DNA from: an uncultured Bacteroides sp.
Lineage (GTDB): Bacteria; Bacteroidota; Bacteroidia; Bacteroidales; GCA-2748055
Length of the DNA stretch: 64,000 nt
NCBI GenBank assembly: GCA_964453785.1
Contig: CAYVRK010000015.1
Coordinates: forward strand, 7,142 to 71,141
Direction of reading: 5' to 3'
Below are positions 786 to 41,159 of this stretch, piece after piece. The notes below the pieces were generated by a model that did not search any database, was not told the origin of the DNA, and saw only the letters and a program-made list of their open reading frames with translations. Position 1 is the first letter of the stretch. Each line of letters begins with the position of its first letter. The translations under genes and the position numbers were made by a program.

Positions 786-1085
786 TTAACCAGAGCCTTT
801 CCGATCAGCTTTCAGGCACACGTAAACATAACCCTTGTCTGCCTCGGTATGAAAAGAACTTCCCACACAACCAATATTCAAAAAGTAGTTTATTACTTCA
901 TTGGCTATCTCTCTATTTTCGACTTTGGCAATTTTGAAGTTTTCAGTGCTTAGAAAAATATCATTACCTATATTCAGATTAGATGGATCATCGGTATTGC
1001 CAACAATAAAATCTTTAAATCCATATTTGCTGTAATACATAAATGCTGAAAGCTTGGCCACCACAACTGATCTGTTGCTCCTCAT
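786..1085 (-). CDS. Hypothetical 99-aa protein, translationally coupled to the upstream 83-aa gene
   Basis: ORF track entry. Its ATG overlaps the stop of 1082..1333 by 4 nt (ATGA). I recognise no domain. Confidence 0.55.
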   Translation of the reverse strand: MRSNRSVVVAKLSAFMYYSKYGFKDFIVGNTDDPSNLNIGNDIFLSTENFKIAKVENREIANEVINYFLNIGCVGSSFHTEADKGYVYVCLKADRKGSG

Positions 1086-1333
1086 CCTTGTTGGATTTTC
1101 TTTAGTTTATAACACTCGATGCATAGAATTTCATACACATGTTCCTTTGATGGACCCTGGTCTGATATACAAATTACCTCCCAGCTCCCCGGCATATCAG
1201 CCTTCCCTCTGCAAGCCCATTCCAAGGGTTTGTTACACCTGATATTGTAATGGTTATGTGAAGGATCACTGCACTGACACCTCGCTTCAGCTTTCTTCCA
1301 GGCTTCCTGGATCAAAAATGGTCGCAACATCAT
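1082..1333 (-). CDS. Small Cys-rich protein with HNH (beta-beta-alpha-Me)-like spacing but without the canonical catalytic His
   Basis: The 83-aa product contains WKKAEARCQC...RCNKPLEW...GSWEVICISDQGP...EILCIECYK. This resembles the W-x-K-x-R...C-x-C...(W/V)E-x-HH-I...N-x-x-LC-x-x-C layout of small HNH nucleases, with HH replaced by IC. It is preceded by bipartite motif copy 1. Confidence 0.55.
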   Translation of the reverse strand: MMLRPFLIQEAWKKAEARCQCSDPSHNHYNIRCNKPLEWACRGKADMPGSWEVICISDQGPSKEHVYEILCIECYKLKKIQQG

Positions 1334-1364: not shown

Positions 1365-1395
1365 GTTTAATCAGAATGGACACCCTTTTGTTACC
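1365..1395 (-). promoter_or_regulatory. Bipartite motif copy 1: GGTAACAAAA-N13-GATTAAAC (candidate alternative-sigma promoter)
   Basis: The minus strand reads GGTAACAAAAgggtgtccattctGATTAAAC and ends 31 nt upstream of the ATG at 1333. Confidence 0.55.
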
Positions 1396-1481: not shown

Positions 1482-2096
1482 ATGCAAAGCTACAGCGAAG
1501 ATATTCTCATCAATGGCATCAGGAACCGTGATGATGGTGTATTTAAGTATCTCCAGGTGAAATTCCAGGATGGAATCAGGCTGATGGTACTGGAGATGGG
1601 AGGCCGACCGGAGGATGCGAAAGACGTATTCAATGAGGGACTCATTGCTCTCATCCGTTTGGTTGATAAGGAAGACTTTAAACTAACATGTAAACTTGGG
1701 ACGCTGCTGTATGCTCTATGCAATAAGATATGGAAGCAGCAGATTGAGAAACAAACCGCAGCGCGGAACTATCATTTACGAAAGCTTGATACTACTCCAA
1801 CAAAAGATTTCTCTGAAAACTATGATGAGGAATTATTCAAAGATATTTTCTGGGGTTGTTTCGAATTGCTTGATACGGTCTGCAAAGAGATCCTGAAAGG
1901 ATACCTCAAAGAAATATCCCCTATGGATATCGCTAAATCTCTTGGTTACAGCTATGGGTACGTTAGAAAGAAAAAAAGCACTTGCCATAGTTATTTGATA
2001 CAAATGATCGAGAACAACCCAGTATTTGTCAAAATTCAAAATAGTGAAAAAGAGTTAACACCTGTACAAAAAGCAATCGCAGTTGATGAAGGATGA
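1482..2096 (+). CDS. RNA polymerase sigma factor, sigma-70 family, ECF-like
   Basis: The 204-aa product has a region-2-like segment (PEDAKDVFNEGLIALIRL) and a region-4 HTH (ISPMDIAKSLGYSYGYVRKKKSTCHSYL). Its size and two-domain layout are typical of group 4 sigmas. Confidence 0.85.
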   Translation: MQSYSEDILINGIRNRDDGVFKYLQVKFQDGIRLMVLEMGGRPEDAKDVFNEGLIALIRLVDKEDFKLTCKLGTLLYALCNKIWKQQIEKQTAARNYHLRKLDTTPTKDFSENYDEELFKDIFWGCFELLDTVCKEILKGYLKEISPMDIAKSLGYSYGYVRKKKSTCHSYLIQMIENNPVFVKIQNSEKELTPVQKAIAVDEG

Positions 2097-2868
2097 TGTA
2101 GGAAATAAGCAATTATTGGCCGATTACCTTTACGGTGACCTGGAACCCGGTGATGAAATGGAATTTGAAAGAATGATTTCAGATCATCCGGAGCTGTCTG
2201 AATCCTATCACTTTCATGTCAAGGTAAGAGACTACCTGAAAGCAAAGATCCAATTGGAAGAGATGAGATCGGACCCATTGCTCGGCGAGGCGGAAAAACT
2301 GGCAGAACATGCCTTCGACGATGATGCTGAAGCTTCGGTTCCAGGTATGCTGAGAAAGAGGTTGAAATATATTCCTGCGGTGGCAGCATCAATTGCCCTT
2401 CTTTTGGTCGTACGTTTCTTTATCCCCGCAACAAATCCGGATGCCTTGTTCTCAGCTTATTATACTCCGCTTTCTGCGACCAATTTCAACCAACGGGGAG
2501 AAACGGATGTTATCTCCTCCGAATTCTCAGAAAGTATCGATCTGTTTAACCAGGGGGCATACGAACAGTCCATCCGAATTTTAAATCAGCTGGAAACGGC
2601 TCAAACTGAGCTGCCGGAAGTGGAGCTGTTTCAGGGATTAAACTATATGGGACTGGAACAGTATGGTAAAGCAAAGGATTTTCTTAATCATTATATCGAG
2701 AACAACACCCGTTTGCTCCCTGAAGCATACTGGTATCTGAGCCTTTGTTTCCTGAAAACCGGCGAATATGCAAAAAGTCAAGAATTTCTTACCCGGCTGG
2801 AAGCATATGACGGAATATATAAAAAAGACGCTCAGGTCCTCGAGCGAAAACTGCGGCGGATCAGGTAA
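2086..2868 (+). CDS. Anti-sigma-like single-pass membrane protein with an extracytoplasmic TPR-like domain
   Basis: It overlaps the sigma stop by 11 nt. The N-terminus (LLADYLYGDLEPGDEMEFERMISDHPEL) is of the anti-sigma type. There is one TM segment (IPAVAASIALLLVVRFFI) and a C-terminal part with TPR-like helices (AYEQSIRILNQL, GKAKDFLNHYIE, YAKSQEFLTRL). The start is set at ATG 2086 rather than TTG 2083. Confidence 0.7.
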   Translation: MKDDVGNKQLLADYLYGDLEPGDEMEFERMISDHPELSESYHFHVKVRDYLKAKIQLEEMRSDPLLGEAEKLAEHAFDDDAEASVPGMLRKRLKYIPAVAASIALLLVVRFFIPATNPDALFSAYYTPLSATNFNQRGETDVISSEFSESIDLFNQGAYEQSIRILNQLETAQTELPEVELFQGLNYMGLEQYGKAKDFLNHYIENNTRLLPEAYWYLSLCFLKTGEYAKSQEFLTRLEAYDGIYKKDAQVLERKLRRIR

Positions 2869-5591
2869 ATACCCATTCCGCAGATTGCCAGAATAACAAA
2901 TGAAAAATACACCCGTTTCGGGATTTTGATAAGCGGATCCGGATTGCCGGTGACCTGGTATCCCGCCCAGTAGTAAGGATGTGTATAAGAGGGAGGCGAA
3001 TTGACCAGGTATTTTTTCTTGGCCATGGAGAGTGCCTGCCCCTTTGATTTTCCGGTTTTCAGCTCCTGATAGAACCCTACCATGATCTGATGGGCTTTTA
3101 CATCTTCTACCGGCCATAATGTGTGTATCACTGAAGCGGCTCCTGCCAAGAGAAAACTCCTTGAAAGACTAAAGATCCCTTCCCCCAGCTGAAGCAGCCC
3201 TCCTCCTGTTTCACAACTGCTTAATACAACCATCGGTGAGGTCAGTACCATGGAGTTGATTTCATAGTCGTACAGGCGGTCTGAATAAACTGAATCATGA
3301 TCTGTATCAAGAAGGAAATACGGTGGGCTACCACCCTTATCATCCGCATGAGCGTGCATGGCAAGATGTATGACTACCTCATCGCTCATGTATTCCAGAA
3401 GCTCATCTTTCGACAGCACATCCTCGATACGGCTTCCTTTAACCATTCCGACTATTTCACGGACTTCAGAAAGAGCCCCCCAGAGATAAAGGGAGCTGTC
3501 TGGCCGGGTGTGTGCATAGTCAGGCACAAACGCATGGATCTTTGGAAAGGAAGATTCAGGTTTCCAGACCCTGTTCATGGTCCGGGAATTATACATATAA
3601 GTTATATCATAATCATTTAACAGGTAAGGTAATCCGGCATAGTTCAGAATCGTGTCCTTTTCATGTTGCCGGATCAGCGCATCGAAGGGTAAACTTGCAA
3701 TCTCCGCATCGGGTGCTATGATCAGGTTCCTGCCTTTAATACGTTGCTCCACCGGTTCAAATATTTGCTGATAGATCCCGTACAATGACGTTTTCAGGTT
3801 TTCGAATTGTACCTGGGATTCGGTGAAAAAATTAAACCCATGGAGATTCTGCATTATATTTTCCAGGTATATGTAAAAACTGCTATCGAGATCCCCCTGC
3901 CATATATAAAAATCCTTCCTGGAAACAACGAATGCATACAGTCTTTGTGGTCCTTCTGCTTCTTTGCCGGATATGTAATACTCCACAAGTGTTTCCCTTT
4001 TTCCCAGGTGCCGGCGAGTCCACTCAAGTGAAAATTCATTGTCAGACAAATCAAATTGTCCTATCTGGGGATGTTCCTTTTTAAGTTGTTCCATTTTCCG
4101 GCCAAAAGCCTGCCTGGAACTGAACAGATGATCCTGCCAGGCGGACAATCTTGAAGAATCAGGGATCACTTCCTGGATCTCATTCTGAATCAGGTTTGAA
4201 AAGAGGTCTATTCGCTGTTTCAGCTCCAGAACACTGGTGGCCAGCGTATCGGACAGGCTCTCAAGGTACAGCCATTCTTTCTCTCTCATCTCAAATACCA
4301 GTTCATTTGATTTTCCGGTAGCGGCCAGGATGAAGGCCTGTTCCTTCAATTTTGTGTCATGGACGAGTCCAAATTGCATGATATTCAAACGGATACCCGT
4401 GCTGAATAGATCTTTCTGACCTGAGATAAGATAAGTACGGCTTTCACCGGACAGGTAGGATCCCTGTATGAGATAGAGCACCTCAATGGCCCTGGCATTT
4501 GTTGCCAATGCTGCATCAAGGATTTCAATTTTCGTCGAATCAGGTATTGACTTGCCGGCCATGCCTTCCAGTACTTTGGTTTTTGTGCCAAGGCATTTCA
4601 GAAGGGTCAGGTCATGAAGCGATTGTTTGATTTCCGGATTTGTATAAGGGTCCCTGTCATTAAATCCGCCGGAAACCGATATCAGGGCAAGCTGGACCAT
4701 TTCAAGTGCCTGAGAGAAATTCTTCTCTTCAAGGTAAAAATTTGCCAGACGTTCATATGCGGCAGCAGTAAGAGGGTGTCTAATCCCATAGTTGTTTTTA
4801 TAATTCTGTATGGCCAGGGCTATATTTGATCTGGCCCCCTCACGGTCTCCCTGTTGGGCCATGAACAGCCCGAAGTGAAGATAAACATTGGCAAGCTGGT
4901 AATGGTCTTCCCCTGATTCCACAATCCATTGATCAATGCTTTTACCAAAATACCGGCCTGCCATCTCAGGACTATCGAGCGCCATGTAAATCCGGGCCAG
5001 GTTATAATAAACACTTCCCAGGTAGGATTGGGCCCGGGTTTCCTTAATCTGCTCACTCTCCTTCATAAGTTCCAGTGCTTCCTTAAACCGTCCAAGCCGG
5101 TAATAGACAAGTCCCTGGTTGAACTTGAGCATGGACAACTTGTTGTAATATGCCTCATCATGTACAGGCAGGGATTGAAGCAGCTTGATGGCCCTGTCAT
5201 AGTAGGAAAGTGCATCGGGATATTCCCCCAGCCAGCCATGGAGCAAAGAGAGGTTGTTATAGACACTGATCTTCAGTTGTACAGTCCCTTGGTCATAAGA
5301 ACGGGTAAGACTATCTGCTATCCGGTATTGTTCCAGGGCATCTTCAATGTAACCCATTTCATAATAGACAATACCAAGAGAGTTGCACACCAGCGCCAAA
5401 TTATAATCCGGCAGTTGATCTCCTTCATCTATAATACGTTCCAGAAGGGATCCGGATCGAACGAAGTCCCCCGCTGCCCATGCTTTCCGGTATTCAGAAT
5501 ATAACAGACGCGCCGAATCTGCCGGAATCTGACAGAGAATCTCCGGCAGGATACCCAAGCCCAGTAAAAACCACAAGAAATGCTTTTTCAT
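2832..5591 (-). CDS. Exported TPR-repeat CHAT-domain (caspase-fold) protease with a C-terminal membrane anchor
   Basis: The 919-aa product has a signal peptide (MKKHFLWFLLGLGILPEILCQ), then about 350 aa of TPR repeats. The C-terminal CHAT domain carries a His/Cys dyad context (VIHLAMHAHAD ... VVLSSCETGGG). A terminal hydrophobic helix (VYFSFVILAICGMGIYLI) is followed by RRSFRSR. Confidence 0.9.
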   Translation of the reverse strand: MKKHFLWFLLGLGILPEILCQIPADSARLLYSEYRKAWAAGDFVRSGSLLERIIDEGDQLPDYNLALVCNSLGIVYYEMGYIEDALEQYRIADSLTRSYDQGTVQLKISVYNNLSLLHGWLGEYPDALSYYDRAIKLLQSLPVHDEAYYNKLSMLKFNQGLVYYRLGRFKEALELMKESEQIKETRAQSYLGSVYYNLARIYMALDSPEMAGRYFGKSIDQWIVESGEDHYQLANVYLHFGLFMAQQGDREGARSNIALAIQNYKNNYGIRHPLTAAAYERLANFYLEEKNFSQALEMVQLALISVSGGFNDRDPYTNPEIKQSLHDLTLLKCLGTKTKVLEGMAGKSIPDSTKIEILDAALATNARAIEVLYLIQGSYLSGESRTYLISGQKDLFSTGIRLNIMQFGLVHDTKLKEQAFILAATGKSNELVFEMREKEWLYLESLSDTLATSVLELKQRIDLFSNLIQNEIQEVIPDSSRLSAWQDHLFSSRQAFGRKMEQLKKEHPQIGQFDLSDNEFSLEWTRRHLGKRETLVEYYISGKEAEGPQRLYAFVVSRKDFYIWQGDLDSSFYIYLENIMQNLHGFNFFTESQVQFENLKTSLYGIYQQIFEPVEQRIKGRNLIIAPDAEIASLPFDALIRQHEKDTILNYAGLPYLLNDYDITYMYNSRTMNRVWKPESSFPKIHAFVPDYAHTRPDSSLYLWGALSEVREIVGMVKGSRIEDVLSKDELLEYMSDEVVIHLAMHAHADDKGGSPPYFLLDTDHDSVYSDRLYDYEINSMVLTSPMVVLSSCETGGGLLQLGEGIFSLSRSFLLAGAASVIHTLWPVEDVKAHQIMVGFYQELKTGKSKGQALSMAKKKYLVNSPPSYTHPYYWAGYQVTGNPDPLIKIPKRVYFSFVILAICGMGIYLIRRSFRSRT

Positions 5592-5657
5592 CCGGTCATG
5601 TCATCAACAGACCATAAAAATATTTAAAATTTCACAGAGCCGGATGAAAAAGCATTT
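5578..5657 (-). promoter_or_regulatory. Perfect 18-bp inverted repeat with a 44-nt spacer, covering the CHAT start codon
   Basis: 5578-5595 AAATGCTTTTTCATCCGG and 5640-5657 CCGGATGAAAAAGCATTT are exact reverse complements. The first arm contains the CHAT ATG (5591-5589) and the 4 nt upstream of it. Confidence 0.5.
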
Positions 5658-5676
5658 TTCGATAGTTTCGTTAAAC

Positions 5677-5823
5677 TTATTTTTTCGGATCCCAGGGATC
5701 ATCATTACCGGGCTGGCTTCCATCGCCGTCACCACCCAGGAGAAAATTCATTTTGTTTTTTTCCAGTTTTGCATTTCTGAACCTGGCTTCCATGTCCGAA
5801 ATTAAGAATCTTGCTTTTTTCAT
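5677..5823 (-). CDS. 48-aa peptide with a double-glycine leader-like N-terminus (below the ORF-track size cut-off)
   Basis: Hand translation gives MKKARFLISDMEARFRNAKLEKNKMNFLLGG/DGDGSQPGNDDPWDPKK. The LEKNKMNFLLGG segment has hydrophobic residues at -4, -7 and -12 relative to GG. It is preceded by motif copy 2. Confidence 0.5.
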   Translation of the reverse strand: MKKARFLISDMEARFRNAKLEKNKMNFLLGGDGDGSQPGNDDPWDPKK

Positions 5824-5850
5824 TTTTTGTAGATTTTGGTGAATACTGCC

Positions 5851-5881
5851 GTTTAATCCGAAACAGTAGTAAATTGTTACC
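5851..5881 (-). promoter_or_regulatory. Bipartite motif copy 2: GGTAACAATT-N13-GATTAAAC
   Basis: The minus strand reads GGTAACAATTtactactgtttcgGATTAAAC and ends 27 nt upstream of the ATG at 5823. Confidence 0.55.
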
Positions 5882-5904
5882 TGATTGTTAAAGAAACTTC
5901 ATCT

Positions 5905-5961
5905 ATAAAAAAAGTGGTGCAACGTTCAGAAATCAAATATTTGATACTGAAGCTGCACCAC
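5905..5961 (-). terminator. Rho-independent terminator after the 54-aa ORF
   Basis: The minus strand reads GTGGTGCAGCTTCAGTATCAAATATTTGATTTCTGAACGTTGCACCAC. This gives a stem of about 20 bp with few mismatches, followed by TTTTTTTAT. Confidence 0.65.
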
Positions 5962-6025
5962 ACGACGGGGATTCCATGTTTCCCAATCCAGTTTATATTG
6001 CGCAGCAACTGATAACGGTAATTAT

Positions 6026-6190
6026 TCAAACTGATCCCTTGTTTTCCAATCCATCTAGGATTTTATTCTTGAACCGCTTCAATTCAGGAGTGATCCAGAT
6101 ATCACTCATCATAAAGATCAGTATTTCAAGGTCTTCCTGTGAAAGAGGCACCAGTTCGATTTTTCCATTTTTCTTGTCATTGCTTCTCAT
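6026..6190 (-). CDS. Hypothetical 54-aa protein (below the ORF-track size cut-off)
   Basis: Hand translation gives MRSNDKKNGKIELVPLSQEDLEILIFMMSDIWITPELKRFKNKILDGLENKGSV. The ORF is bracketed by motif copy 3 upstream and a strong terminator downstream. Confidence 0.45.
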   Translation of the reverse strand: MRSNDKKNGKIELVPLSQEDLEILIFMMSDIWITPELKRFKNKILDGLENKGSV

Positions 6191-6208
6191 ACCATTTAAT
6201 TTATACCG

Positions 6209-6239
6209 GTTTAATCAGAATTGGTCTTGAATTGTTACC
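6209..6239 (-). promoter_or_regulatory. Bipartite motif copy 3: GGTAACAATT-N13-GATTAAAC
   Basis: The minus strand reads GGTAACAATTcaagaccaattctGATTAAAC and ends 18 nt upstream of the ATG at 6190. It lies back-to-back with copy 4, 23 nt apart. Confidence 0.55.
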
Positions 6240-6262
6240 CTGTTATATAAAACCAAGTCTCA

Positions 6263-6293
6263 GGTAACAATTCTCCCTCCTTTCTGATTAAAC
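6263..6293 (+). promoter_or_regulatory. Bipartite motif copy 4: GGTAACAATT-N13-GATTAAAC
   Basis: The plus strand reads GGTAACAATTctccctcctttctGATTAAAC and ends 31 nt upstream of the ATG at 6325. Confidence 0.55.
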
Positions 6294-6324
6294 TCCAAAC
6301 TGAATTCAAAGCCAAATGGGAAAT

Positions 6325-6489
6325 ATGCGAATCTTGGAGAAAAAGATATTGAATTCTGAGAATCTCATCAGGATAGAATATCAATGTACCGTGTGCGGGA
6401 ATCATTACGATGAGAGTGCTACCAAGGGAACTGGTTCATTACGTATAACCTGCAAGGTTTGCGGTAATACACTCGTAGTTTATGTATAA
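6325..6489 (+). CDS. 54-aa zinc-ribbon protein (CxxC...CxxC; below the ORF-track size cut-off)
   Basis: Hand translation gives MRILEKKILNSENLIRIEYQCTVCGNHYDESATKGTGSLRITCKVCGNTLVVYV. It is preceded by motif copy 4 and followed 36 nt later by the pentapeptide-repeat gene. Confidence 0.55.
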   Translation: MRILEKKILNSENLIRIEYQCTVCGNHYDESATKGTGSLRITCKVCGNTLVVYV

Positions 6490-6525
6490 TCTTGTCTAGG
6501 TTCAAACTTCTGTGTACCTTCAACT

Positions 6526-7098
6526 ATGGAAGCATTCATAGAAGACAAAACATTTGAAAACATCAACTTTCAGGAAAATCCGCTGGCCAAAAGTGAGTAT
6601 GAAAATTGTGTGTTTCATCAATGTGATTTATCAAACGCAGACCTATCAAACATAGGGTTTACGGAATGTGAGTTTCATGGATGCAATCTAAGTCTGTCAA
6701 AAATCATCAAAACTGCATTTCGGGATGTACATTTCAGGGAGTGCAAAATGCTGGGGCTTCAATTTGAAAATTGCAATGAATTCGGGCTATCCTTTTCATT
6801 TGAGAAGTGCCAGCTGAATCATTCTTCATTCTACAGGACAAAAATCAAAAAGACCCAATTCAGGAATTCACAAATCCAGGAGACTGATTTTACGGAGTGC
6901 GACCTGACGGGTTCAACGTTTGATCATTGCGATCTGGGCGGGGCTACTTTTGACCACACAAATCTTGAGAATGTGGATTTCCGGACTTCAGACAACTACT
7001 CCATTGATCCCGAAATAAACCGGATAAAGAAAGCAAAATTCTCTCTGCAGGGACTTTCAGGATTATTAGATAAATATGACATCGAAATTGATAGTTGA
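6526..7098 (+). CDS. Pentapeptide-repeat protein (Qnr/MfpA-like right-handed quadrilateral beta-helix)
   Basis: The 190-aa product consists almost entirely of A(D/N)LxX-type pentapeptides (CDLSNADLSNIGFTECEFHGCNLSLSK, CDLTGSTFDHCDLGGATFDHTNLENVDF). Confidence 0.9.
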   Translation: MEAFIEDKTFENINFQENPLAKSEYENCVFHQCDLSNADLSNIGFTECEFHGCNLSLSKIIKTAFRDVHFRECKMLGLQFENCNEFGLSFSFEKCQLNHSSFYRTKIKKTQFRNSQIQETDFTECDLTGSTFDHCDLGGATFDHTNLENVDFRTSDNYSIDPEINRIKKAKFSLQGLSGLLDKYDIEIDS

Positions 7099-8104: not shown

Positions 8105-9364
8105 ATGGACCCAAAACAACACCCCATGAAACACTGTGCCACCTTGTTTCTGTTCATACTCATCCCATGGTGTGGGATGATCTCCTGTGAAAAAGATGAC
8201 CCTGTTGACAAAGAACCACAGAAAATAGCCCTTCACCATAAATCGACCGAGATCATTAAAGCCGATCAGGCATTTGGTTTCGAACTGTTCAGGGAGGCAA
8301 TCAGCCTGTGTGACGAGGAGAACATCATGATCTCTCCTCTAAGTGTGGCCTATGCACTGGGGATGACTTACAACGGAGCAGCCGGAACCACGCTGGAAGC
8401 ATTCAATGAAGTCCTGCATTTCGGCGAACTCACCACCCGGGAAGTCAATGAGAGCTACAAGGACCTGATGGACCAACTGGTTCACCTGGACGACCGGGTG
8501 TTGTTTTCAATGGCCAACAGCATCTGGTACCGGCTGGGATATCAGGTATTGTCAGAATTCAAACAAACCAACGAAGACTATTTTGATGCCGGGGTAGAAG
8601 AGATAGATTTCAGTGACCCGGAAACCTTGGAGGTGATCAACCAGTGGATAGAGAACAACACCAACGGCAAAATCAAAGATATGCTTGATTACATCCCTTC
8701 GGATGCGGTCATGTACCTGATCAATGCCATCTATTTCAATGCGCAGTGGAAATATGAGTTTGTGAAGGAGGAAACCTATGAAGGAGATTTCAGGATGGCA
8801 GATGGCTCTCTTTATCCGGCTGATTTCATGCGCGTATCGGGCAATTTTGCCTTTACAACAAACGAAGCCTTCTCGGCTGTTGAACTTCCTTATGGAGACA
8901 GCACCTTCAGCATGGTGATCCTGCTCCCTTCGGGTGAGATTAAAGTATCAGATCTGGTCGCCCAACTGGATGAATCCCACTGGGATTCCTGGTTCGACAA
9001 TACCACCTGCACGGGAATGCAGATCGATCTGCCGAAATTCAAATACGGGTTTAAGGGCCTGTTGAACGATCCGCTGATCAACCTGGGTCTTGGAGATGCT
9101 TTCTCGGGCCAGGCAGATTTCACCAGGATCAACCCGGAGGGAAATATCTTTATTTCAAGGGTCATTCACCAGACCTTTATCGATGTGCAGGAAGAGGGCA
9201 CCGAAGCTGCTGCAGCCACCATTGTGGAGATGAGATATAACAGCGCAGAAGGAGGCAGTCCCATCTTCTTCAAAGTGGACAAACCTTTCCTCTACCTTAT
9301 TAAAGAAAACTCCACCGGAGCCCTTATGTTTATGGGAAAGGTGGGGAAGCCCGAATACGATTAG
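8105..9364 (+). CDS. Serpin family protease inhibitor, probably a lipoprotein
   Basis: The product shows SPLSVAYALGMTYNGAAGTT, NAIYFNAQWKYEF and an inhibitory-type hinge/reactive-centre loop (QEEGTEAAAATIVEMRYNS). The C-terminus is FLYLIKENSTGALMFMGKV and the N-terminus has a lipobox-like GMISC. Confidence 0.9.
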   Translation: MDPKQHPMKHCATLFLFILIPWCGMISCEKDDPVDKEPQKIALHHKSTEIIKADQAFGFELFREAISLCDEENIMISPLSVAYALGMTYNGAAGTTLEAFNEVLHFGELTTREVNESYKDLMDQLVHLDDRVLFSMANSIWYRLGYQVLSEFKQTNEDYFDAGVEEIDFSDPETLEVINQWIENNTNGKIKDMLDYIPSDAVMYLINAIYFNAQWKYEFVKEETYEGDFRMADGSLYPADFMRVSGNFAFTTNEAFSAVELPYGDSTFSMVILLPSGEIKVSDLVAQLDESHWDSWFDNTTCTGMQIDLPKFKYGFKGLLNDPLINLGLGDAFSGQADFTRINPEGNIFISRVIHQTFIDVQEEGTEAAAATIVEMRYNSAEGGSPIFFKVDKPFLYLIKENSTGALMFMGKVGKPEYD

Positions 9365-9442
9365 ACAGGGGGCCTCCCCGTTTCAGCCATTCCCATGCTG
9401 AAAAACCGTACATTTATTACTCTCAATCATTAGAAATATCTG

Positions 9443-10231
9443 ATGGTAAAGCAGGATAATTATACGGAATCCATCTCAAAACTGAACAAACTGAAGGCTG
9501 GAACAACAGTGAATCTGGTGTTGAGCGGAGGGGGTGAAAAAGGGATTGCCCATGTGGCACTGCTTGAAAAGCTGGAAGACCTGCAGATTAAAATCAATGC
9601 CATATCGGCAACCAGTGCCGGTTCACTGGTTGGCGCCATGTATGCTTCAGGAGTCAGACCCGGGGAAATCATCGAAATCTTTACAGAAACTCCGCTTTTC
9701 AGGTACTCCTGGCTTAACCCCCTCAATTCAGGAATATTCAAATCTGAAAAGTACCAGGTATATCTGAAGGATCTGGTAAGAGACAGCTTTGAGAGACTTG
9801 ATATTCCCATGTTCATATGCGCCACCAATATGGAAGACGGGGAGAGCCACTATTTCCACCAGGGCCAGTTGCTCAAACCTTTGATCGCATCGTGTGCTGT
9901 ACCCGGTATTTTTTCTCCGGTTGAAATCGACGGGAAGCTCTATTCGGATGGCGGGGTCATGGATAATTTCCCTGTTTTCCCGTTCCGGGATGATCCTTTA
10001 CCGGTCATCGGAAGCTATGTGGTTGTACCCAAAATCGTTGGGAAAAAGGATTTGGATAATCCCATTAAAGTAACCAGCCGGTCGGCCACCCTGATGGGAT
10101 ATGCAGTGAACCGTTCCAAATTCTTTGACACCTATTTGACGGTTGTTCACCAGATCCGGGATTTCGGAATATTCGATCAGAAGCACGGGCACCAGATCTA
10201 TGACAAGGCCCGGCAGGAGTTGTTCGGCTAG
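9443..10231 (+). CDS. Patatin-like phospholipase
   Basis: It has an oxyanion GGGEKG motif, a nucleophile elbow (ATSAGS, the GxSxG position) and a catalytic DGG (YSDGGVMDNFP). Confidence 0.88.
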   Translation: MVKQDNYTESISKLNKLKAGTTVNLVLSGGGEKGIAHVALLEKLEDLQIKINAISATSAGSLVGAMYASGVRPGEIIEIFTETPLFRYSWLNPLNSGIFKSEKYQVYLKDLVRDSFERLDIPMFICATNMEDGESHYFHQGQLLKPLIASCAVPGIFSPVEIDGKLYSDGGVMDNFPVFPFRDDPLPVIGSYVVVPKIVGKKDLDNPIKVTSRSATLMGYAVNRSKFFDTYLTVVHQIRDFGIFDQKHGHQIYDKARQELFG

Positions 10232-10245
10232 AACAACTGCATTAC

Positions 10246-11409
10246 TCATTCCCAGTAAAGTCTGTTATCCATTACATACTCCAGCATCTCTTCATACAGG
10301 ATCAACTGGGTATCAAGAATATCAGCATAGGATACGATGGGCTCCGGGCGCTGATCAGATACACAGCCATGACTACATTCGAAAGTAAAGGCCATGGTGC
10401 CGGAAATATGGTGCAGGGCACTGATCAGATTGAAGCTTTCCTGCGGGGGGAACTCTTTGTCTTCCACGGATGGCTCACCCATCTGGTTGTCCGGATAACA
10501 GGGCAAACCTTCCTCCCTGAATCTCTGGTTGAGCTGCCTGGCCAGCTGTTCAATGCGTTGTTTCATGAACCAGGGTTCATAGCTGGCATGCAGGATCCTG
10601 GACTCTTCCTCCATGGAATGAAGAGATACAGTCATATCCGGCGCTTCAGCCCGGGCAATTCCCATGATGGCTTTGGTTTCATCTGCCATGGGGGAGAAAA
10701 AATCATCATGCATCAGGTTGATGCCATTGTCGTTGAAATAGGCGCCAAGGATCCCCACATTCCCCTCCATGGGATGAAGGGATTTTGCCTGGGGCCAACC
10801 CCAGGATGAACCATCGGTGCGGGTACCCTGACCGTATTTGGTCATGATCTCGGTAGGAATGCCGGTAAAACTGTCATAAGGACATCTTTTCCGCCCATCG
10901 GGATTGCCGCAGGGAACGATGATTACCCGGCACTGGTCCAGTAATTCCTTCAATCGACCCCATTCCTTTCCCCGGTGATCCCTACCTGTTTCTGCAACAT
11001 GGATCAGGTTGATCAGACCAACCAACCCTTCGACTTCATGACCGTGTACCGGACCAAGGAAATAGACCACAGCTTTGGTACCATGGCCTTTTTTTGCATA
11101 ATAAGCCGGATTCAGAGCTGCCACTGCAGAATTGTAATTGGCCTGTGATTGGAAATCTTCTTTCTCCCCATAATAAACTGCATACAGGGGTAGGCCTCCC
11201 GGTGAAGTGGCGATGACCTCTTTTTTACCCTTTTTAATGCTATTGAGTTCAGCTTCCAGATCGGACAAAGTGGATTTGTAGAATGAGGGCAAATCAGTAA
11301 GGTTGGGTGGGTCACCGGCTTCTATGGGACTCTGGGCACGGCATAGCCCCGCGAAGGAAATGAGAACAGAAATGAGGAAGCCTTTGAAGAAAAAGTTACG
11401 CTGTACCAT
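10246..11409 (-). CDS. Secreted M14-like zinc carboxypeptidase family protein
   Basis: There is a signal peptide, an HxxE zinc motif (GPVHGHEVEG) and a distal His (TVSLHSMEE). Confidence 0.6.
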   Translation of the reverse strand: MVQRNFFFKGFLISVLISFAGLCRAQSPIEAGDPPNLTDLPSFYKSTLSDLEAELNSIKKGKKEVIATSPGGLPLYAVYYGEKEDFQSQANYNSAVAALNPAYYAKKGHGTKAVVYFLGPVHGHEVEGLVGLINLIHVAETGRDHRGKEWGRLKELLDQCRVIIVPCGNPDGRKRCPYDSFTGIPTEIMTKYGQGTRTDGSSWGWPQAKSLHPMEGNVGILGAYFNDNGINLMHDDFFSPMADETKAIMGIARAEAPDMTVSLHSMEEESRILHASYEPWFMKQRIEQLARQLNQRFREEGLPCYPDNQMGEPSVEDKEFPPQESFNLISALHHISGTMAFTFECSHGCVSDQRPEPIVSYADILDTQLILYEEMLEYVMDNRLYWE

Positions 11410-11485: not shown

Positions 11486-12520
11486 CTAGAATAGTTGAGA
11501 GACCGGACCCTGACTGACCCCCAGGTATGTGTTGTGATCCGGATCAATCTCCCTGAGCAACTCGACGGACCTCTCCCACAGTTTCAGCCCTTCTTCCGGT
11601 TCATACACCTTGGGATCCATTCTCTTGGGATTGAACATATGGAGGTACTCGTTGGTTTTGCCCTCGTAGTCAGGCGACAGGGCCATGTAAACCACCGGCA
11701 GGGCCGCTTTGGCAGGTGGCCGGAAAACTATCCAGAAGATCCCGTTAAGGACCTTTCTCAGCAACCAGGGCGCTTCTTTCACGATGTTGGAATGAACGGG
11801 ACCCGGGCAGATTGCATTGATGCCAAGCAGAACCTTATTTTTGTTGACCCGTTTGGAGAGCTCGGTGGCGTAAGTGTTCAGGACCAGCTTGAAGTAGCTG
11901 TAGTTGGAGATGGCCTTGGACACCCCGTATTCGAAATAGCGCCCGAATTCATCATAATCAATGTAGGTGGCTCCCTGGTGCGAATCGCTGGAGATGAAGA
12001 TCAGCCTGGAGAGCCTGCCCGCCTCCTTCAGTTCGAGTACCCCGTGCTGGATCATCAGCAGGGTGAGGGTTACATTGGAAAGGTAATTGACCTGGAAGAA
12101 TTCATCCTGGCCCGTTTCTGTTTTCCGTGGACCGGGCAGGGCCACCGCCGCATTGAGGATGCATACATCAAGGGTGATCCCGTCACTCACAAGCGATTGC
12201 ACAAATGCATGGATGGTCTTGATCTTGCTGAGATCCAGGTACCTCATTTCGACGGTATCCGATCCGGAGAGTTTCTTTACCCGCTCTCCCGCTTCCGGGA
12301 TCTGGCTTCTGCAAGCCATGATCACCCTGGCGCCCCGTTTGGCAAAATCAACCGCAAGGGCAAAACCCAGTCCCGATGTGGCACCGGTAATCACCACCGT
12401 CTTGCCATCAGCTCGATCATCGTCTGTTAACCGGGATTCAAGTTTTTGCCCCGAAAAGAAATCCCTGACCCCGGCAAGGGATGCCACTACGGGATTGGTA
12501 AAACGACCTTCAGCCATCAT
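11486..12520 (-). CDS. SDR family oxidoreductase (paralogue 2 of a tandem pair)
   Basis: It carries a TGxxxGxG motif (VVITGATSGLGFA), a YxxxK motif (YGVSKAISNY) and a 45-aa N-terminal extension. Overall architecture matches 12510..13541. Confidence 0.88.
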   Translation of the reverse strand: MMAEGRFTNPVVASLAGVRDFFSGQKLESRLTDDDRADGKTVVITGATSGLGFALAVDFAKRGARVIMACRSQIPEAGERVKKLSGSDTVEMRYLDLSKIKTIHAFVQSLVSDGITLDVCILNAAVALPGPRKTETGQDEFFQVNYLSNVTLTLLMIQHGVLELKEAGRLSRLIFISSDSHQGATYIDYDEFGRYFEYGVSKAISNYSYFKLVLNTYATELSKRVNKNKVLLGINAICPGPVHSNIVKEAPWLLRKVLNGIFWIVFRPPAKAALPVVYMALSPDYEGKTNEYLHMFNPKRMDPKVYEPEEGLKLWERSVELLREIDPDHNTYLGVSQGPVSQLF

Positions 12521-39326: not shown

Positions 39327-41159
39327 TTAAAACATCTGCATTTTATACAGTTTATTATAGAGCCCCTTTTTATTCTTGATGAGTTCGTTATGGGTGCCCC
39401 GTTCCACAATTTTACCTTCATCGATGACCAGGATCTGGTCGGCGTGCTTGATGGTGGAAAGCCGGTGAGCGATCACAATGGAGGTGCGGTTCTTCATCAG
39501 GTTGATGATGGCTTCCTGCACCAGTCTTTCTGACTCGGTATCCAGTGCAGAGGTTGCCTCATCCAGGATCAGGATGGGCGGATTGGCCATCACGGCCCGG
39601 GCAATGCTTACCCGCTGCTTCTGACCACCACTTAGTTTGCCGCCTCCTTCACCCACACCCTCATCGTATCCTTTCTCGGTCTCGGTGATAAACTCATGCG
39701 CATTGGCCACACTGGCCGCATTGATGATGTCCTCCTCGGTGATCTCCCTGCTGGTACCAAATGCAATGTTGTTCCTGAAGGAATCATTGAACAGGATCGA
39801 CTGCTGGCTCACTATTCCCATCAGTTTTCTCAATGGCTTGACGGCATAATCCTTCACGGGAATGCCATCAATCAATACCTCTCCCTCTGTGGTATCCATG
39901 AACCTGGGCATCAGGTCTACCAGGGTTGACTTCCCCGAACCCGATTTGCCCACCAGGGCAATGGTCTCCCCCTTTCTGATGGTAAAGGAGACATTCTGAA
40001 GCACATACTCCTTGTCATATTTAAAGGATACATTCCTGAATTCAATGGACTCTTTGAACTCATTCACAGGTACAGGGTCGGTTTTTTCCTCGATCTTCAG
40101 GTCGGCCTGCAACAGATGATCGATCCTGTCCACCGAAGCCATCCCTTTCTGTACGCTGAACCAGGCAGTGGTGACATTCTTTGCCGGAGGGATGATCTGG
40201 CTGAATATAATCAGAAACAGGATCAGGCTCTCACCTTTCAGGCTGCCTGTCCCGGATAAGACGAGGTTTCCCCCGTAGGCCATGATCACCATGAGTACGA
40301 TGGTGGCCATCAATTCACTGAACGGACTGGCCAGGAAGCGGCGGCGGATTATTTTCCGGAGGAGTAAAGAAAACCGGTTGTTGGTGAAAGCAAATTTTTC
40401 GGTCATTTTTGCCTCACCATTGAATGCCTTGATGATCCTTAATCCCGAAAGGGTCTCTTCGAGCAATGCAAGCAACTCCCCCAGCCGCTCCTGTCCCCTG
40501 AAAGAGGACCTCCTGAGCGACCTGGCAATGCGGCCGATCAGAATACCTGTTATGGGTAGTACGATGATGACGAAAAGGGTCAGGTTGAAGCTGATGGAGA
40601 ACAGGACAACGAGGTAGACCACGATGGTGATGGGATCCCTGATAAGCATCTGGAGCGAACTCATGATGCTTGCCTCCACCTCCTGTACGTCACTTGACAT
40701 CCTGGAGATAACATCCCCTTTTCTGGCCTCGGTATAATAGGACAGGGGGAGCCTGAGTACCTTCTGGTATATTTCATTCCGCATGTCCCTGACCACAAAT
40801 GCCCTGATGGGTGCCAGCACATAGTTAGCGCCAAACAGGAAACCATTCTTCAGGATACTGAACATCACCACCAGAATGCTCACCAGGATCAGGGCCCCGG
40901 TGTGGCCATGATTGGTCATGATCAAGCTCATGTAGTAATTGAGGGTGTGCAATAAATAAGCTGTACTGAGCTCGAATGCGGCTGGTTCGGTAACAAGCGG
41001 CTGGTTGTTGAACAGGATCCTTAAAAAAGGTAGTACCATGGCAAATGAAAACAGCCCGAAGAAGGCTGCAAAAATATTGTACAGCACATTCTGAACAACG
41101 AACCATTTATAGGGAGATAAATAGGATAAAAGCCTTAAAAATCTTTTCATAGAAATCAC
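39327..41159 (-). CDS. ABC transporter, fused permease/ATPase, MsbA-like lipid exporter
   Basis: It has six N-terminal TM helices, Walker A (GKSGSGKST), signature (LSGGQKQR) and Walker B (ILILDEATSALD). The start may instead be ATG 41150. Confidence 0.92.
   Translation of the reverse strand: MISMKRFLRLLSYLSPYKWFVVQNVLYNIFAAFFGLFSFAMVLPFLRILFNNQPLVTEPAAFELSTAYLLHTLNYYMSLIMTNHGHTGALILVSILVVMFSILKNGFLFGANYVLAPIRAFVVRDMRNEIYQKVLRLPLSYYTEARKGDVISRMSSDVQEVEASIMSSLQMLIRDPITIVVYLVVLFSISFNLTLFVIIVLPITGILIGRIARSLRRSSFRGQERLGELLALLEETLSGLRIIKAFNGEAKMTEKFAFTNNRFSLLLRKIIRRRFLASPFSELMATIVLMVIMAYGGNLVLSGTGSLKGESLILFLIIFSQIIPPAKNVTTAWFSVQKGMASVDRIDHLLQADLKIEEKTDPVPVNEFKESIEFRNVSFKYDKEYVLQNVSFTIRKGETIALVGKSGSGKSTLVDLMPRFMDTTEGEVLIDGIPVKDYAVKPLRKLMGIVSQQSILFNDSFRNNIAFGTSREITEEDIINAASVANAHEFITETEKGYDEGVGEGGGKLSGGQKQRVSIARAVMANPPILILDEATSALDTESERLVQEAIINLMKNRTSIVIAHRLSTIKHADQILVIDEGKIVERGTHNELIKNKKGLYNKLYKMQMF

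Follow-up and report, generated by a model that had tools for sequence, protein, structure and literature searches.

A conserved Bacteroidales cassette pairs a sigma/anti-sigma couple with a predicted exported CHAT protease and a small, putatively exportable peptide

Introduction

CHAT domains belong to the caspase-fold proteases, and two described systems connect them to sigma factor control. In the Craspase-Csx30-RpoE system, the TPR-CHAT protease Csx29 cleaves Csx30, which holds an ECF-like sigma factor. In Myxococcus xanthus, the transmembrane anti-sigma factor DdvA carries an anti-sigma domain, a transmembrane (TM) segment and a periplasmic TPR-CHAT domain in a single chain (PMC11506125). 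Removal of its TPR-CHAT allows cleavage by RseP, and DdvA has been proposed, without proof, to act as its own site-1 protease. Its active site is incomplete in the resting state, and the DdvA-DdvS pair controls a CBASS/CRISPR island and confers phage resistance (PMC11506125). Caspase-like proteins with an ECF sigma and a TPR protein have also been noted in conflict systems (PMC8195603).

We analyzed a 64,000-nucleotide stretch of DNA (the window) from an uncultured Bacteroides sp., in which an earlier note had described a sigma gene, an anti-sigma-like gene and a convergent gene for an exported TPR-CHAT protein. The note proposed that the CHAT protein is a site-1 protease or sensor that releases the sigma factor, by analogy with Craspase and with no known precedent for an envelope ECF pathway. 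We found the description of the locus to be correct, including the three open reading frames, both overlaps, the His/Cys dyad and the four promoter-like motifs. The proposed interpretation was only partly supported. The closest analogue is DdvA rather than Craspase-Csx30-RpoE, so that the idea is not unprecedented. This locus is a split version of that design, in which the anti-sigma factor and the TPR-CHAT are two separate proteins, and a small peptide gene, missed in the note, accompanies them.

Results

The sigma and anti-sigma genes overlap each other and converge on the CHAT gene. The sigma-like gene, at 1482..2096(+), encodes a 204-aa ECF-like (group 4) protein. It matches TIGR02937 with E=2e-9 and 37 bits, below the 42.9-bit cut-off. 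A profile built from 13 orthologs hit only ECF sigmas in the PDB, with the sigma2 region matching 5or5 (E=5e-5), SigW and RpoE, and the sigma4 region matching SigL 3hug (E=2e-3). Orthologs share 54-71% identity, apart from that of one orthologous locus, L013, at 38-40%.

The anti-sigma-like gene, at 2083..2868(+), encodes 261 aa. Its TTG start at 2083 is followed by an ATG at 2086, so that the overlap with the sigma gene is 11 nt from the ATG, or 14 nt from the TTG. Simple hydropathy analysis gave one TM segment (residues 96-114; nt 2368-2424) preceded by a basic cluster. This separates a predicted cytoplasmic helical N-domain (residues 1-80) from a conserved juxtamembrane YY.PL..(x)QRG segment with invariant R138 (nt 2494-2496) and a predicted periplasmic 3-TPR domain (residues 143-258; nt 2509-2856). 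Although the C terminus gave only weak TPR hits in Pfam searches, in the AF2 model (pLDDT 83.5) it matched peptide-binding 3-TPR modules such as SycD, YbgF and CHIP. The N-domain was not recognizable by sequence as an anti-sigma domain, with only weak similarity to NF052375 (E=0.03) and zf-HC2 (E=0.15-0.27).

The TPR-CHAT gene, at 2832..5591(-), encodes a 919-aa predicted caspase-like protease. CHAT (PF12770) scored E=7e-42 over residues 606-883 (nt 2943-3776) and TPR_12 scored E=5e-26. The TPR region covers residues 25-320 approximately, followed by a helical scaffold at about 325-530. By the same simple hydropathy analysis, the protein has a predicted signal peptide (residues 1-20) with Q21 at +1, which fits the Bacteroidetes Q-rule (PMC5837995), and a C-terminal TM segment (residues 893-911; nt 2859-2915) followed by RRSFRSRT. 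Thus, the TPR-CHAT domain and the anti-sigma TPR domain are both predicted to face the periplasm. Foldseek searches with the AF2 model (pLDDT 81) matched separase, Csx29 and DdvA, and DdvA was also the best sequence match for this CHAT domain in the PDB. H742, H746 (in HLAMH; H746 at nt 3354-3356) and C793 (in SSC; nt 3213-3215) were invariant in 22 orthologs, and H746 and C793 aligned with the catalytic H862 and C907 of DdvA. The coding regions of the anti-sigma and CHAT genes overlap at their 3' ends by 37 bp (2832-2868), with the CHAT sequence ...RRSFRSRT* antisense to the anti-sigma sequence ...VLERKLRRI.

We then asked whether this arrangement is conserved; synteny, together with dyad integrity and topology, had been named beforehand as a point on which the interpretation could fail, and it did not fail on any of them. 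All 17 orthologous loci (the L numbers used here designate such comparison loci), from distinct GTDB species, carry sigma and anti-sigma convergent on the CHAT gene, with CHAT identities of 37-52%. Three further loci found through the small peptide (L088-L090) show the same six called genes. An overlap of 37-55 nt is kept in 16 of the 17 loci and in L088-L090, i.e., in 19 of 20. The flanking genes differ between the window and the other loci, which carry polysaccharide genes and PadR, indicating that the cassette behaves as a unit.

The association extends to distant relatives. Of six loci of distant anti-sigma homologs, five have an adjacent CHAT gene. The sigma/anti-sigma relatives at L082 and L083 lack an adjacent CHAT gene. 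Among 62 distant CHAT loci, 17 have an ECF-like sigma gene within 2 kb, which is 7 times the density found further away (binomial p=2e-5). No tandem or CRISPR array was found in the window.

Directly upstream of the CHAT gene, on the same strand, lies a conserved small gene, pep48, at 5677..5823(-). It encodes a 48-aa putative double-glycine-leader peptide precursor, MKK...KMNFLLGG followed by DGDGSQPGNDDPWDPKK, whose leader has hydrophobic residues at -4, -7 and -12 relative to GG. It is conserved in every orthologous locus that has upstream DNA, and at least 233 clusters exist in the protein database, one of them named "natural product precursor". The TIGR04149 GG-leader model scored E=0.008, below the cut-off. 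In a sister clade, three of three loci carry a canonical GG-leader peptide (LS..EM..VKGG) and an adjacent C39-peptidase ABC exporter (PCAT). In contrast, no PCAT was found in the 64-kb window, whose one ABC exporter lacks a C39 domain, or within about 8 kb in the 20 orthologous loci. The peptide and the sister-clade exporter together suggest what the signal could be.

The ECF-type promoter-like motif was reexamined in its bipartite form. The 10-mer GGTAACAATT alone was not significant, with 4 hits at up to 1 mismatch against 4.6 expected, one of them inside the CHAT gene. The form GGTAACAATT-N13-GATTAAAC gave 4 hits against 0.07 expected, each ending 18-32 nt upstream of a small open reading frame. 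It occurs only beside the cassette, in the window and in L001-L011, and it changes along with the sigma factor in L013 and in the PCAT clade, where it reads TGTCACAAA-N13-GACATGTA. None of the four faces the sigma gene.

The exact motif at 5851-5881(-) ends 27 nt upstream of the pep48 ATG. As only 85 nt separate pep48 from the CHAT gene, with no scored terminator between them, it probably serves the CHAT gene too, which is therefore probably part of the regulon as well as a possible input. The motif at 1365-1395(-), with 2 mismatches, faces away from the sigma gene toward cys83 (1082..1333(-)), which starts 31 nt downstream and encodes an 83-aa Cys/His-rich protein, a putative regulon member. 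L001 has an equivalent motif at 12197-12227 and an ortholog of cys83 in the same position (46% identity); cys83 had no Pfam, NCBIfam or PDB hit. An exact motif at 6209-6239(-) precedes pep54 (6026..6190(-)), which encodes a 54-aa protein of unknown function (...LIYM.SD.WITPE.KRFK...). It is conserved in L001-L011, is called as a 55-59-aa gene in L088-L090 (66 aa in L089) and had no family hit. Divergent from it, an exact motif at 6263-6293(+) precedes zn57 (6316..6489(+)), a small CxxC...CxxC zinc-ribbon protein and putative regulon member, with hits below their cut-offs to Zn_ribbon_8 (E=2e-4) and FmdB-type CxxC_CxxC (E=4e-4). Equivalent minus-strand motifs occur in L004 and L007, but L007 has only a weak counterpart of zn57. 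A pentapeptide-repeat gene, at 6526..7098(+), follows zn57 on the same strand.

Discussion

The organization of this locus suggests a self-contained envelope signaling cassette, although we propose this mechanism only tentatively. In this view, the sigma factor would be held at the inner membrane by the cotranslated anti-sigma protein, whose 3-TPR domain faces the periplasm. The Sec-exported TPR-CHAT protease would be tethered to the same membrane, with its active site beside the periplasmic part of the anti-sigma. On a periplasmic cue it would clip the anti-sigma in the manner of a site-1 protease, and a general site-2 protease would then finish the job and release the sigma factor. The cue would most likely be the 13-17-residue acidic peptide (DGDG..Q....DPW) made from the pep48 precursor and exported by a C39-peptidase ABC transporter. 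The released sigma factor would transcribe from the GGTAACAATT-N13-GATTAAAC promoters, driving the peptide-CHAT operon, hence positive feedback, and a few small genes, namely, pep54, orfX in other genomes, the Zn-ribbon gene and cys83. Our analysis established the gene content, the conserved linkage, dyad and promoters, the predicted topology, and the link between the peptide and the PCAT exporter. In contrast, sigma binding by the anti-sigma, peptide export and sensing, and recognition of the motif by this sigma factor are inferred, and cleavage of the anti-sigma by the CHAT protein is pure inference. The existence of DdvA as a fused form nevertheless argues, in a Rosetta-stone manner, for a functional link between the two proteins.

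It may be that the CHAT protein is an output rather than an input, although we consider this less likely. The sigma/anti-sigma pair would then respond to another envelope cue through ordinary proteases and switch on the peptide-CHAT operon, whose protease would mature, trim or degrade the exported peptide or other envelope proteins. The conserved motif promoter upstream of pep48 and CHAT, and the absence of a motif facing the sigma gene, are consistent with this. However, it does not explain why the anti-sigma carries a conserved periplasmic TPR domain, why DdvA exists as a fusion, or why the CHAT and anti-sigma genes stay physically interlocked even where the gene order is rearranged, as in the PCAT clade and in L067, where all the genes lie on one strand. 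The two roles are not mutually exclusive. A nonproteolytic role, in which CHAT acts as a TPR scaffold or coreceptor that binds the anti-sigma TPR domain and controls it by sequestration, without cleavage, appears more doubtful still. Both periplasmic parts are TPR modules, which typically mediate protein-protein contacts, and the incomplete resting active site of DdvA would fit. Nevertheless, the dyad and its flanking motifs (HLAMH, LSSCET) are invariant in orthologs that share only 42-71% identity with the window protein, and in the PCAT clade, which argues for selection on catalysis.

A conflict or anti-phage sensor of the DdvA type also seems unlikely. The periplasmic TPR-CHAT would detect a foreign protein, such as a phage or competitor protein, and release the sigma factor to turn on small effector genes, the GG peptide being a toxin or an alarm signal rather than a self-signal. 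In line with this, beyond the precedents cited above, the putative regulon consists of small, poorly conserved genes, including Cys/His-rich proteins, whose set varies between genomes, and in the window the cassette lies next to a tRNA-Ser gene. However, PADLOC models matched no cassette protein except for a weak BovA hit to the CHAT region, and no recognizable nuclease, toxin or defense gene was found in the cassette or its flanks. The predicted mature peptide is short, acidic and rich in Gly and Pro, unlike pore-forming bacteriocins. Finally, coincidental or merely inherited adjacency is very unlikely. All close orthologs come from related Bacteroidales MAGs, and 12 of the 17 also share unrelated flanking polysaccharide genes, but the window keeps the cassette with none of those flanking genes. 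In addition, the coding regions physically overlap, and the association recurs with different gene orders in distant clades and in other phyla.

Organization of the locus and its putative promoters

The three open reading frames (ORFs) described in the earlier note were found exactly where it had placed them. The 204-aa sigma-like gene is at 1482..2096(+). The 261-aa anti-sigma-like gene at 2083..2868(+) begins with TTG-ATG, and counted from the ATG at 2086 it overlaps the sigma stop by 11 nt, or by up to 14 nt if the TTG is used. The convergent 919-aa gene at 2832..5591(-) has its last 37 nt complementary to the last 37 nt of the 261-aa gene. The observation of the note is confirmed.

We then searched for sequence elements that might control the locus. 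The 10-mer GGTAACAATT taken alone is not enriched, and only the 31-nt bipartite form is significant. The pattern GGTAACAATT-N13-GATTAAAC occurs four times against 0.07 expected, and all four copies lie within the roughly 5-kb locus. Each copy ends 18-32 nt upstream of a small ORF, namely, cys83 at 1082..1333(-), a 48-aa ORF (pep48) at 5677..5823(-), a 54-aa ORF (pep54) at 6026..6190(-), and a 57-aa zinc-ribbon ORF at 6316..6489(+). A bipartite promoter with an AAC-containing -35 element upstream of its own operon would be expected of an autoregulated ECF sigma factor. The GGTAAC...GATTAAAC motif is present four times, but none of its copies faces the sigma gene, which is not visibly autoregulated. 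A scan for generic sigma-70 promoters and terminators gave nothing above background. A terminator-like hairpin sits at the CHAT stop codon, at 2846-2829(-), inside the anti-sigma gene, but it is one of 7 hits against 6 expected.

Conservation of the cassette in uncultured Bacteroidales

To determine if the three genes are conserved together, we scanned one genome per GTDB species with a profile of CHAT orthologs, which returned 79 loci. The 17 closest loci (L001 to L017) have 37-52% CHAT identity, and all are from uncultured Bacteroidales or Bacteroidota MAGs. In every one, the anti-sigma and sigma genes lie immediately downstream of the CHAT gene and convergent on it, and are adjacent to or overlap each other. 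In 16 of the 17, a 37-55 nt overlap of the two coding 3' ends is kept. Every locus with upstream DNA also carries the 48-aa gene directly in front of the CHAT gene, and all of these except the divergent L013 carry the 54-aa gene further upstream. The bipartite motif sits in front of both small genes in L001-L011, mostly as an exact copy. Three further loci (L088-L090), reached independently through homologs of the 48-aa peptide, show the same order of called genes, i.e., small, small, peptide, CHAT, then convergent anti-sigma and sigma, with a 37-40 nt overlap.

Within the overlap (2832-2868 in the window, and the equivalent positions in L001-L017 and L088-L090), the same DNA encodes on opposite strands the Arg-rich C-terminal tail of the CHAT protein (RRSFRSRT) and the Arg-rich tail of the anti-sigma (VLERKLRRI). 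Both tails are conserved at the protein level. With the terminator-like hairpin inside the anti-sigma gene, this leaves room for antisense or collision effects between the two convergent operons.

Twelve of the 17 loci also share flanking polysaccharide-synthesis genes, and seven share a PadR gene. The window has none of these and lies beside a tRNA-Ser gene instead, indicating that the cassette travels as a unit. We considered that the synteny might reflect chance linkage retained through shared ancestry. This was rejected, because the window lacks the flanking genes that the other loci share and because distant clades keep the association with different gene orders.

The association was also sought beyond the orthologs. 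Distant homologs of the anti-sigma protein (18-30% identity) were traced to their contigs, and in five of six distinct loci a large CHAT gene is adjacent. L085 and L087 repeat the layout of the window, whereas L080, L084, and L086, which belong to a sister clade, have the order C39-peptidase ABC exporter (PCAT), sigma convergent on CHAT, small peptide, and TPR anti-sigma-like gene. In L082/L083, a distant sigma/anti-sigma pair of the same family (5412-6870) has no CHAT gene nearby and sits next to T9SS-type cargo and PorP/SprF genes; the pair therefore also occurs without a dedicated protease.

HMMs built from the cassette proteins were run over all loci. Among the 62 more distant CHAT loci, 17 have an ECF-like sigma within 2 kb of the CHAT gene, which is seven times the density found further away (p=2e-5). 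These loci span Saprospiraceae, Phycisphaeraceae, Acidobacteriota, Chloroflexota, and Heliobacteriaceae. In the Bacteroidota and Phycisphaeraceae loci that we examined, most CHAT proteins have the signal peptide plus C-terminal TM layout, with the distant locus L048 as an exception. The acidobacterial, chloroflexal, and heliobacterial proteins lack the C-terminal TM.

Features of the sigma factor and of the anti-sigma-like protein

The sigma factor matches TIGR02937 over residues 22-169 (E=2e-9) but scores 37.2 bits, below the curated cut-off of 42.9, and Pfam Sigma70_r2 scores only E=0.011, also below its cut-off. In contrast, a profile of 13 orthologs hits only sigma factors in the PDB, nearly all of them ECF-type. 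The sigma2 region (regions 2.1-2.4) matches the SigE/SigW chimera 5or5 (E=5e-5), SigW 5wuq, and RpoE 1or7, and profile positions 97-165 match the SigL sigma4 domain in 3hug (E=2.4e-3) and 6dv9. The protein is small (204 aa, orthologs 194-203 aa), with no sigma1 or sigma3 domain. It is therefore a divergent group 4 sigma factor. Its orthologs carry four invariant cysteines, C70 and C80 in sigma2 and C134 and C168 in sigma4. This is unusual for an ECF sigma, and these residues might form a redox or metal site.

The 261-aa protein has one hydrophobic segment (residues 96-114) preceded by a basic cluster, a pattern seen in all 13 orthologs and indicating, from hydropathy only, a single TM with the N terminus in the cytoplasm. 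The AF2 model, run with database homologs (pLDDT 83.5), shows an N-terminal helical domain (helices 3-16, 22-34, 36-63, and 65-80), a disordered linker, a TM helix, and a C-terminal domain of six to seven helices. The best structural matches of the latter are peptide-binding 3-TPR modules such as SycD, IpgC, YbgF, and CHIP, whereas at the sequence level only weak C-terminal TPR hits were obtained.

The N-domain could not be assigned to the anti-sigma-domain family by sequence. PDB profile searches with the full-length protein and with residues 1-95 found only TPR hits or noise, the NCBIfam 'antisigma' hit is very weak (NF052375, E=0.03), Pfam zf-HC2 scored E=0.15-0.27, and Foldseek on the whole model was dominated by the TPR domain. 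The putative anti-sigma role therefore rests on gene coupling, topology, and shape. A juxtamembrane periplasmic segment (YY.PL...QRG) is conserved, and R138 is invariant in 27 sequences, including distant ones. It may be a docking or cleavage site, but this is speculation.

Features of the TPR-CHAT protein and its predicted export

The large protein has a strong CHAT domain (PF12770, 144 bits against a cut-off of 24, E=7e-42, residues 606-883) and strong TPR hits. H742, H746, and C793 are invariant in 22 sequences. In a direct alignment, H746 and C793 pair with the catalytic H862 and C907 of the Myxococcus anti-sigma factor DdvA, and the Cys region aligns with that of Csx29. The AF2 model (pLDDT 81) is most similar to separase (E=7e-13), to Csx29 of Craspase (TMt up to 0.60), and to DdvA (E=1.6e-10), consistent with a separase/Csx29-type TPR-plus-CHAT fold.

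Orthologs start with a basic, then hydrophobic, segment ending just before a nearly invariant Gln (Q21), which fits the Bacteroidetes Q-rule for signal peptidase I substrates (PMC5837995). We considered a lipoprotein (SPII) signal and rejected it, because the Cys that precedes Q21 in some orthologs is not conserved, whereas Q21 is. Most orthologs end with a hydrophobic TM segment, and all 22 end with an (R/K)RRSF..R tail. The TPR-CHAT is thus predicted to lie in the periplasm, as is the TPR domain of the anti-sigma.

A conserved small peptide gene upstream of the CHAT gene

The earlier note had missed the 48-aa ORF directly upstream of the CHAT gene. It belongs to a family with at least 233 clusters in the protein database, all of 39-50 aa and all unnamed except one that JGI labels 'natural product precursor'. 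Its alignment shows MKK, a leader with hydrophobic residues at -4, -7, and -12, an invariant GG, and then a short acidic core, DG(D/N)G.Q....DPW. In the window the leader reads L(-12)EKNKM(-7)NFL(-4)LGG with D after the GG, and the candidate mature peptide is DGDGSQPGNDDPWDPKK. The GG pair and G35 are invariant in 15 sequences. The match to the Bacteroidetes GG-leader model TIGR04149 is weak (E=0.0077, 16.1 bits against a cut-off of 25).

In the sister clade, the equivalent peptides have textbook double-glycine leaders (LS..EM..VKGG, in fuller form EFVLS.EEM..VKGG), and in all three loci examined (L080, L084, and L086) a complete C39-peptidase ABC transporter lies next to the cassette. Upstream of these peptide genes lies a related but distinct bipartite motif, TGTCACAAA-N13-GACATGTA, and L013 has CGTAACAAAA-N13-GATAAAC. 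The promoter motif therefore changes together with the sigma factor. Also in the PCAT-linked clade, a short (267-278 aa) HisKA/HATPase_c protein with no obvious sensor domain directly follows the TPR anti-sigma-like gene (L080:6784-7587, L081:1329-2132, L086:7544-8380). No PCAT was found in the window, where the only ABC exporter, at 39327..41159, has no C39 domain, or within about 8 kb in the 20 orthologous loci. For the clade of the window, export of the peptide is thus an extrapolation.

The small proteins pep54, cys83, and orfX have no Pfam, NCBIfam, or PDB match, and a resemblance of orfX and cys83 to HNH proteins is unsupported. orfX is a conserved gene of about 85 aa (W..SVKEAVWKKG.I.PDYSP.VLRWD..GR.MMWS.YGR.DS.FGW.I) that lies between pep54 and the pep48 promoter in nine of the orthologous loci and in L088-L090 (L001:7426-7674, L002:841-1095, and L088:8566-8823, among others). 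It is absent from the window, where only an unrelated-looking 50-aa ORF at 5877-6029(-) fills the gap.

Comparison with known systems

The earlier note had likened the locus to the type III-E CRISPR Craspase module, i.e., Cas7-11/gRAMP with Csx29, Csx30, and RpoE (PMC10028731). The analogy holds for domain content, with a TPR-CHAT protease genetically tied to an ECF-like sigma factor and a protein that holds it, in our case by inference, and for the overall TPR-CHAT fold (Foldseek TMt 0.51-0.60 to 7zoq, 7y84, and 8d9f). It fails on Cas association and on cellular compartment. The 64-kb window has no Cas gene and no tandem or CRISPR array, no Cas-type domain appears in the called genes of L080-L090, and the PADLOC defence models gave no Cas hit for the cassette proteins and no system-level match. 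Craspase is cytoplasmic and RNA activated, whereas here the protease is predicted to be periplasmic, and Csx30 is not a membrane anti-sigma factor.

The closer relative is DdvA-DdvS (PMC11506125). In both cases an ECF-type sigma factor is controlled at the inner membrane, in our case by inference, and a TPR-CHAT that is periplasmic, here by prediction, carries an intact His-Cys dyad. The proposed logic is also the same, with CHAT acting as a site-1-like protease ahead of RseP. DdvA is the best PDB sequence match for this CHAT domain, although the similarity is remote (E=2e-4 over about 110 residues). However, the anti-sigma domain, TM, and TPR-CHAT of DdvA lie in a single polypeptide, its defining feature, whereas here they are split between two proteins of 261 and 919 aa encoded on opposite strands. 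The CHAT protein has a predicted cleavable signal peptide and a C-terminal anchor instead of an N-terminal anti-sigma domain plus TM. The anti-sigma has its own small TPR domain and lacks the CHCC zinc site, as its residues 1-95 contain no Cys in the window or in the orthologs. The putative regulon is a handful of small genes plus the peptide-CHAT operon rather than CBASS/CRISPR, and a GG-leader peptide belongs to the cassette. DdvA-like proteins were reported only in Myxococcota and one Comamonas species, while this cassette is from Bacteroidota. The locus is therefore not a member of that family but a split variant that may work the same way.

The cassette also recalls regulated intramembrane proteolysis of single-pass anti-sigma factors (RseA/DegS/RseP, RsiW/PrsW, and RsiP/signal peptidase), in which the anti-sigma is translationally coupled to an ECF sigma and its extracytoplasmic domain is the presumed target of a signal-activated site-1 cut. 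Known site-1 enzymes are serine or metalloproteases encoded elsewhere, whereas the candidate here would be a clan CD cysteine protease encoded inside the cassette. Another parallel is with Gram-positive pheromone circuits using double-glycine leaders (ComC/ComAB/ComDE and class II bacteriocin three-component systems). There too a GG-leader precursor is paired with a C39-peptidase ABC exporter, which in our case is adjacent only in the sister clade and is not linked to the cassette in the clade of the window. The peptide gene lies behind the promoter of the regulator that it would activate, which is the autoinduction layout. Here, sensing would go through a periplasmic TPR-CHAT, an anti-sigma factor, and an ECF sigma instead of a histidine kinase and response regulator, and the host is a diderm Bacteroidota.

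Earlier surveys had noted ECF sigma genes near CHAT or caspase genes. ECF54 of Actinobacteria has a genomic context that includes proteins with carboxypeptidase, subtilase, and CHAT domains, for which proteolytic control was proposed (PMC8999054). ECF54 lacks an anti-sigma factor, it is from a different phylum, and no membrane topology or peptide component has been described for it. Neighborhoods with caspase, ECF sigma, and TPR proteins have also been noted (PMC8195603). Full-text searches found no description of a Bacteroidota cassette combining sigma, TPR anti-sigma, and exported TPR-CHAT and none linking a GG-leader peptide to an anti-sigma system.

Possible mechanism

The interpretation of the earlier note, that the CHAT protein is a site-1 protease or sensor that releases the sigma factor, is partly supported. 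All its sequence-level predictions hold, including conserved synteny, an intact dyad, and a common predicted compartment for the two proteins, but cleavage remains an inference. The note was not aware of a CHAT protease shown to gate an envelope ECF pathway, and the novelty of the idea must be narrowed because of DdvA. What is new is the peptide, its link to the PCAT, and the conserved interlocked gene arrangement.

In the best-supported reading, the anti-sigma would hold the sigma factor at the membrane, and the membrane-tethered periplasmic TPR-CHAT would act on the periplasmic part of the anti-sigma, as a site-1-like step, in response to a periplasmic ligand. The released sigma factor would then fire the motif promoters, including that of the peptide-CHAT operon, resulting in positive feedback. 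The self-encoded GG-leader peptide is the most economical candidate for the ligand. Our analyses establish the conserved linkage and overlap, the conserved dyad, the predicted colocalization, the conserved cassette-specific promoter motifs, and the peptide-PCAT link. Every biochemical step is inferred, including binding and inhibition of the sigma factor by the anti-sigma and the proteolytic activity of the CHAT protein. The strongest indirect argument is the fusion precedent, as DdvA carries the anti-sigma domain, a TM, and a TPR-CHAT in one chain, its TPR-CHAT blocks RseP, and an S1P-like self-cleavage has been proposed (PMC11506125). The main alternative is that the CHAT protein is an output of the sigma factor and acts on the peptide or on other envelope proteins. 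It may also be that the cassette is a DdvA-like defence sensor for foreign proteins. These readings do not fully exclude one another.

A bolder possibility, which we consider unlikely on present evidence but which is not excluded, is that the cassette is a peptide-autoinducer, quorum-sensing-like circuit of a diderm phylum that uses no histidine kinase. In this view, the GG-leader peptide exported by a PCAT would activate the tethered caspase-like protease, which would perform the site-1 cut of the TPR anti-sigma and free the ECF-like sigma to transcribe the peptide-protease operon and a small regulon. This would be the first case in which a CHAT protease is a dedicated, trans-acting site-1 protease of an anti-sigma factor, and the first in which the activating ligand is encoded in the same cassette.

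The proposal made for DdvA could not be tested, because its activating signal is unknown and the protease and its substrate are one polypeptide. The cassette described here separates them and appears to encode its own candidate ligand, a 13-17-residue peptide, so that the hypothesis becomes directly testable with four defined components and one reporter promoter. If the peptide loop is real, it would add a new wiring for peptide-based cell-cell signaling in Gram-negative bacteria, from a GG-leader peptide through a caspase-like protease and an anti-sigma factor to an ECF sigma. It would also give a function to part of the very large pool of unannotated bacterial TPR-CHAT proteins, many of which, in our sample, sit next to ECF-like sigma genes across several phyla. 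The compact sigma, anti-sigma, protease, and promoter set could also serve as an orthogonal synthetic-biology switch.

Variant loci and neighboring genes

The anti-sigma gene of L006 (10724-11534) and the CHAT gene of L011 (6627-9090) are each split into two ORFs, which could result from a frameshift, a pseudogene, or an assembly error. In the window, a gene for a pentapeptide-repeat protein (Pentapeptide_4, E=1e-24) at 6526-7098(+) starts 37 nt after the zinc-ribbon ORF on the same strand and could be cotranscribed from the motif promoter at 6263-6293. It is not found in the other loci. Further neighbors, at 8105-11409, are a serpin (E=2e-108), a patatin-like phospholipase, and an M14-like carboxypeptidase homolog. 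A bacterial serpin a few kb from a caspase-like protease is curious, but it is not conserved in the related loci. The tRNA-Ser(TGA) gene is at 512-599, about 500 bp from the cys83 end of the cassette. The genomic context of the cassette here differs from that in most related genomes, and it may therefore have been relocated.
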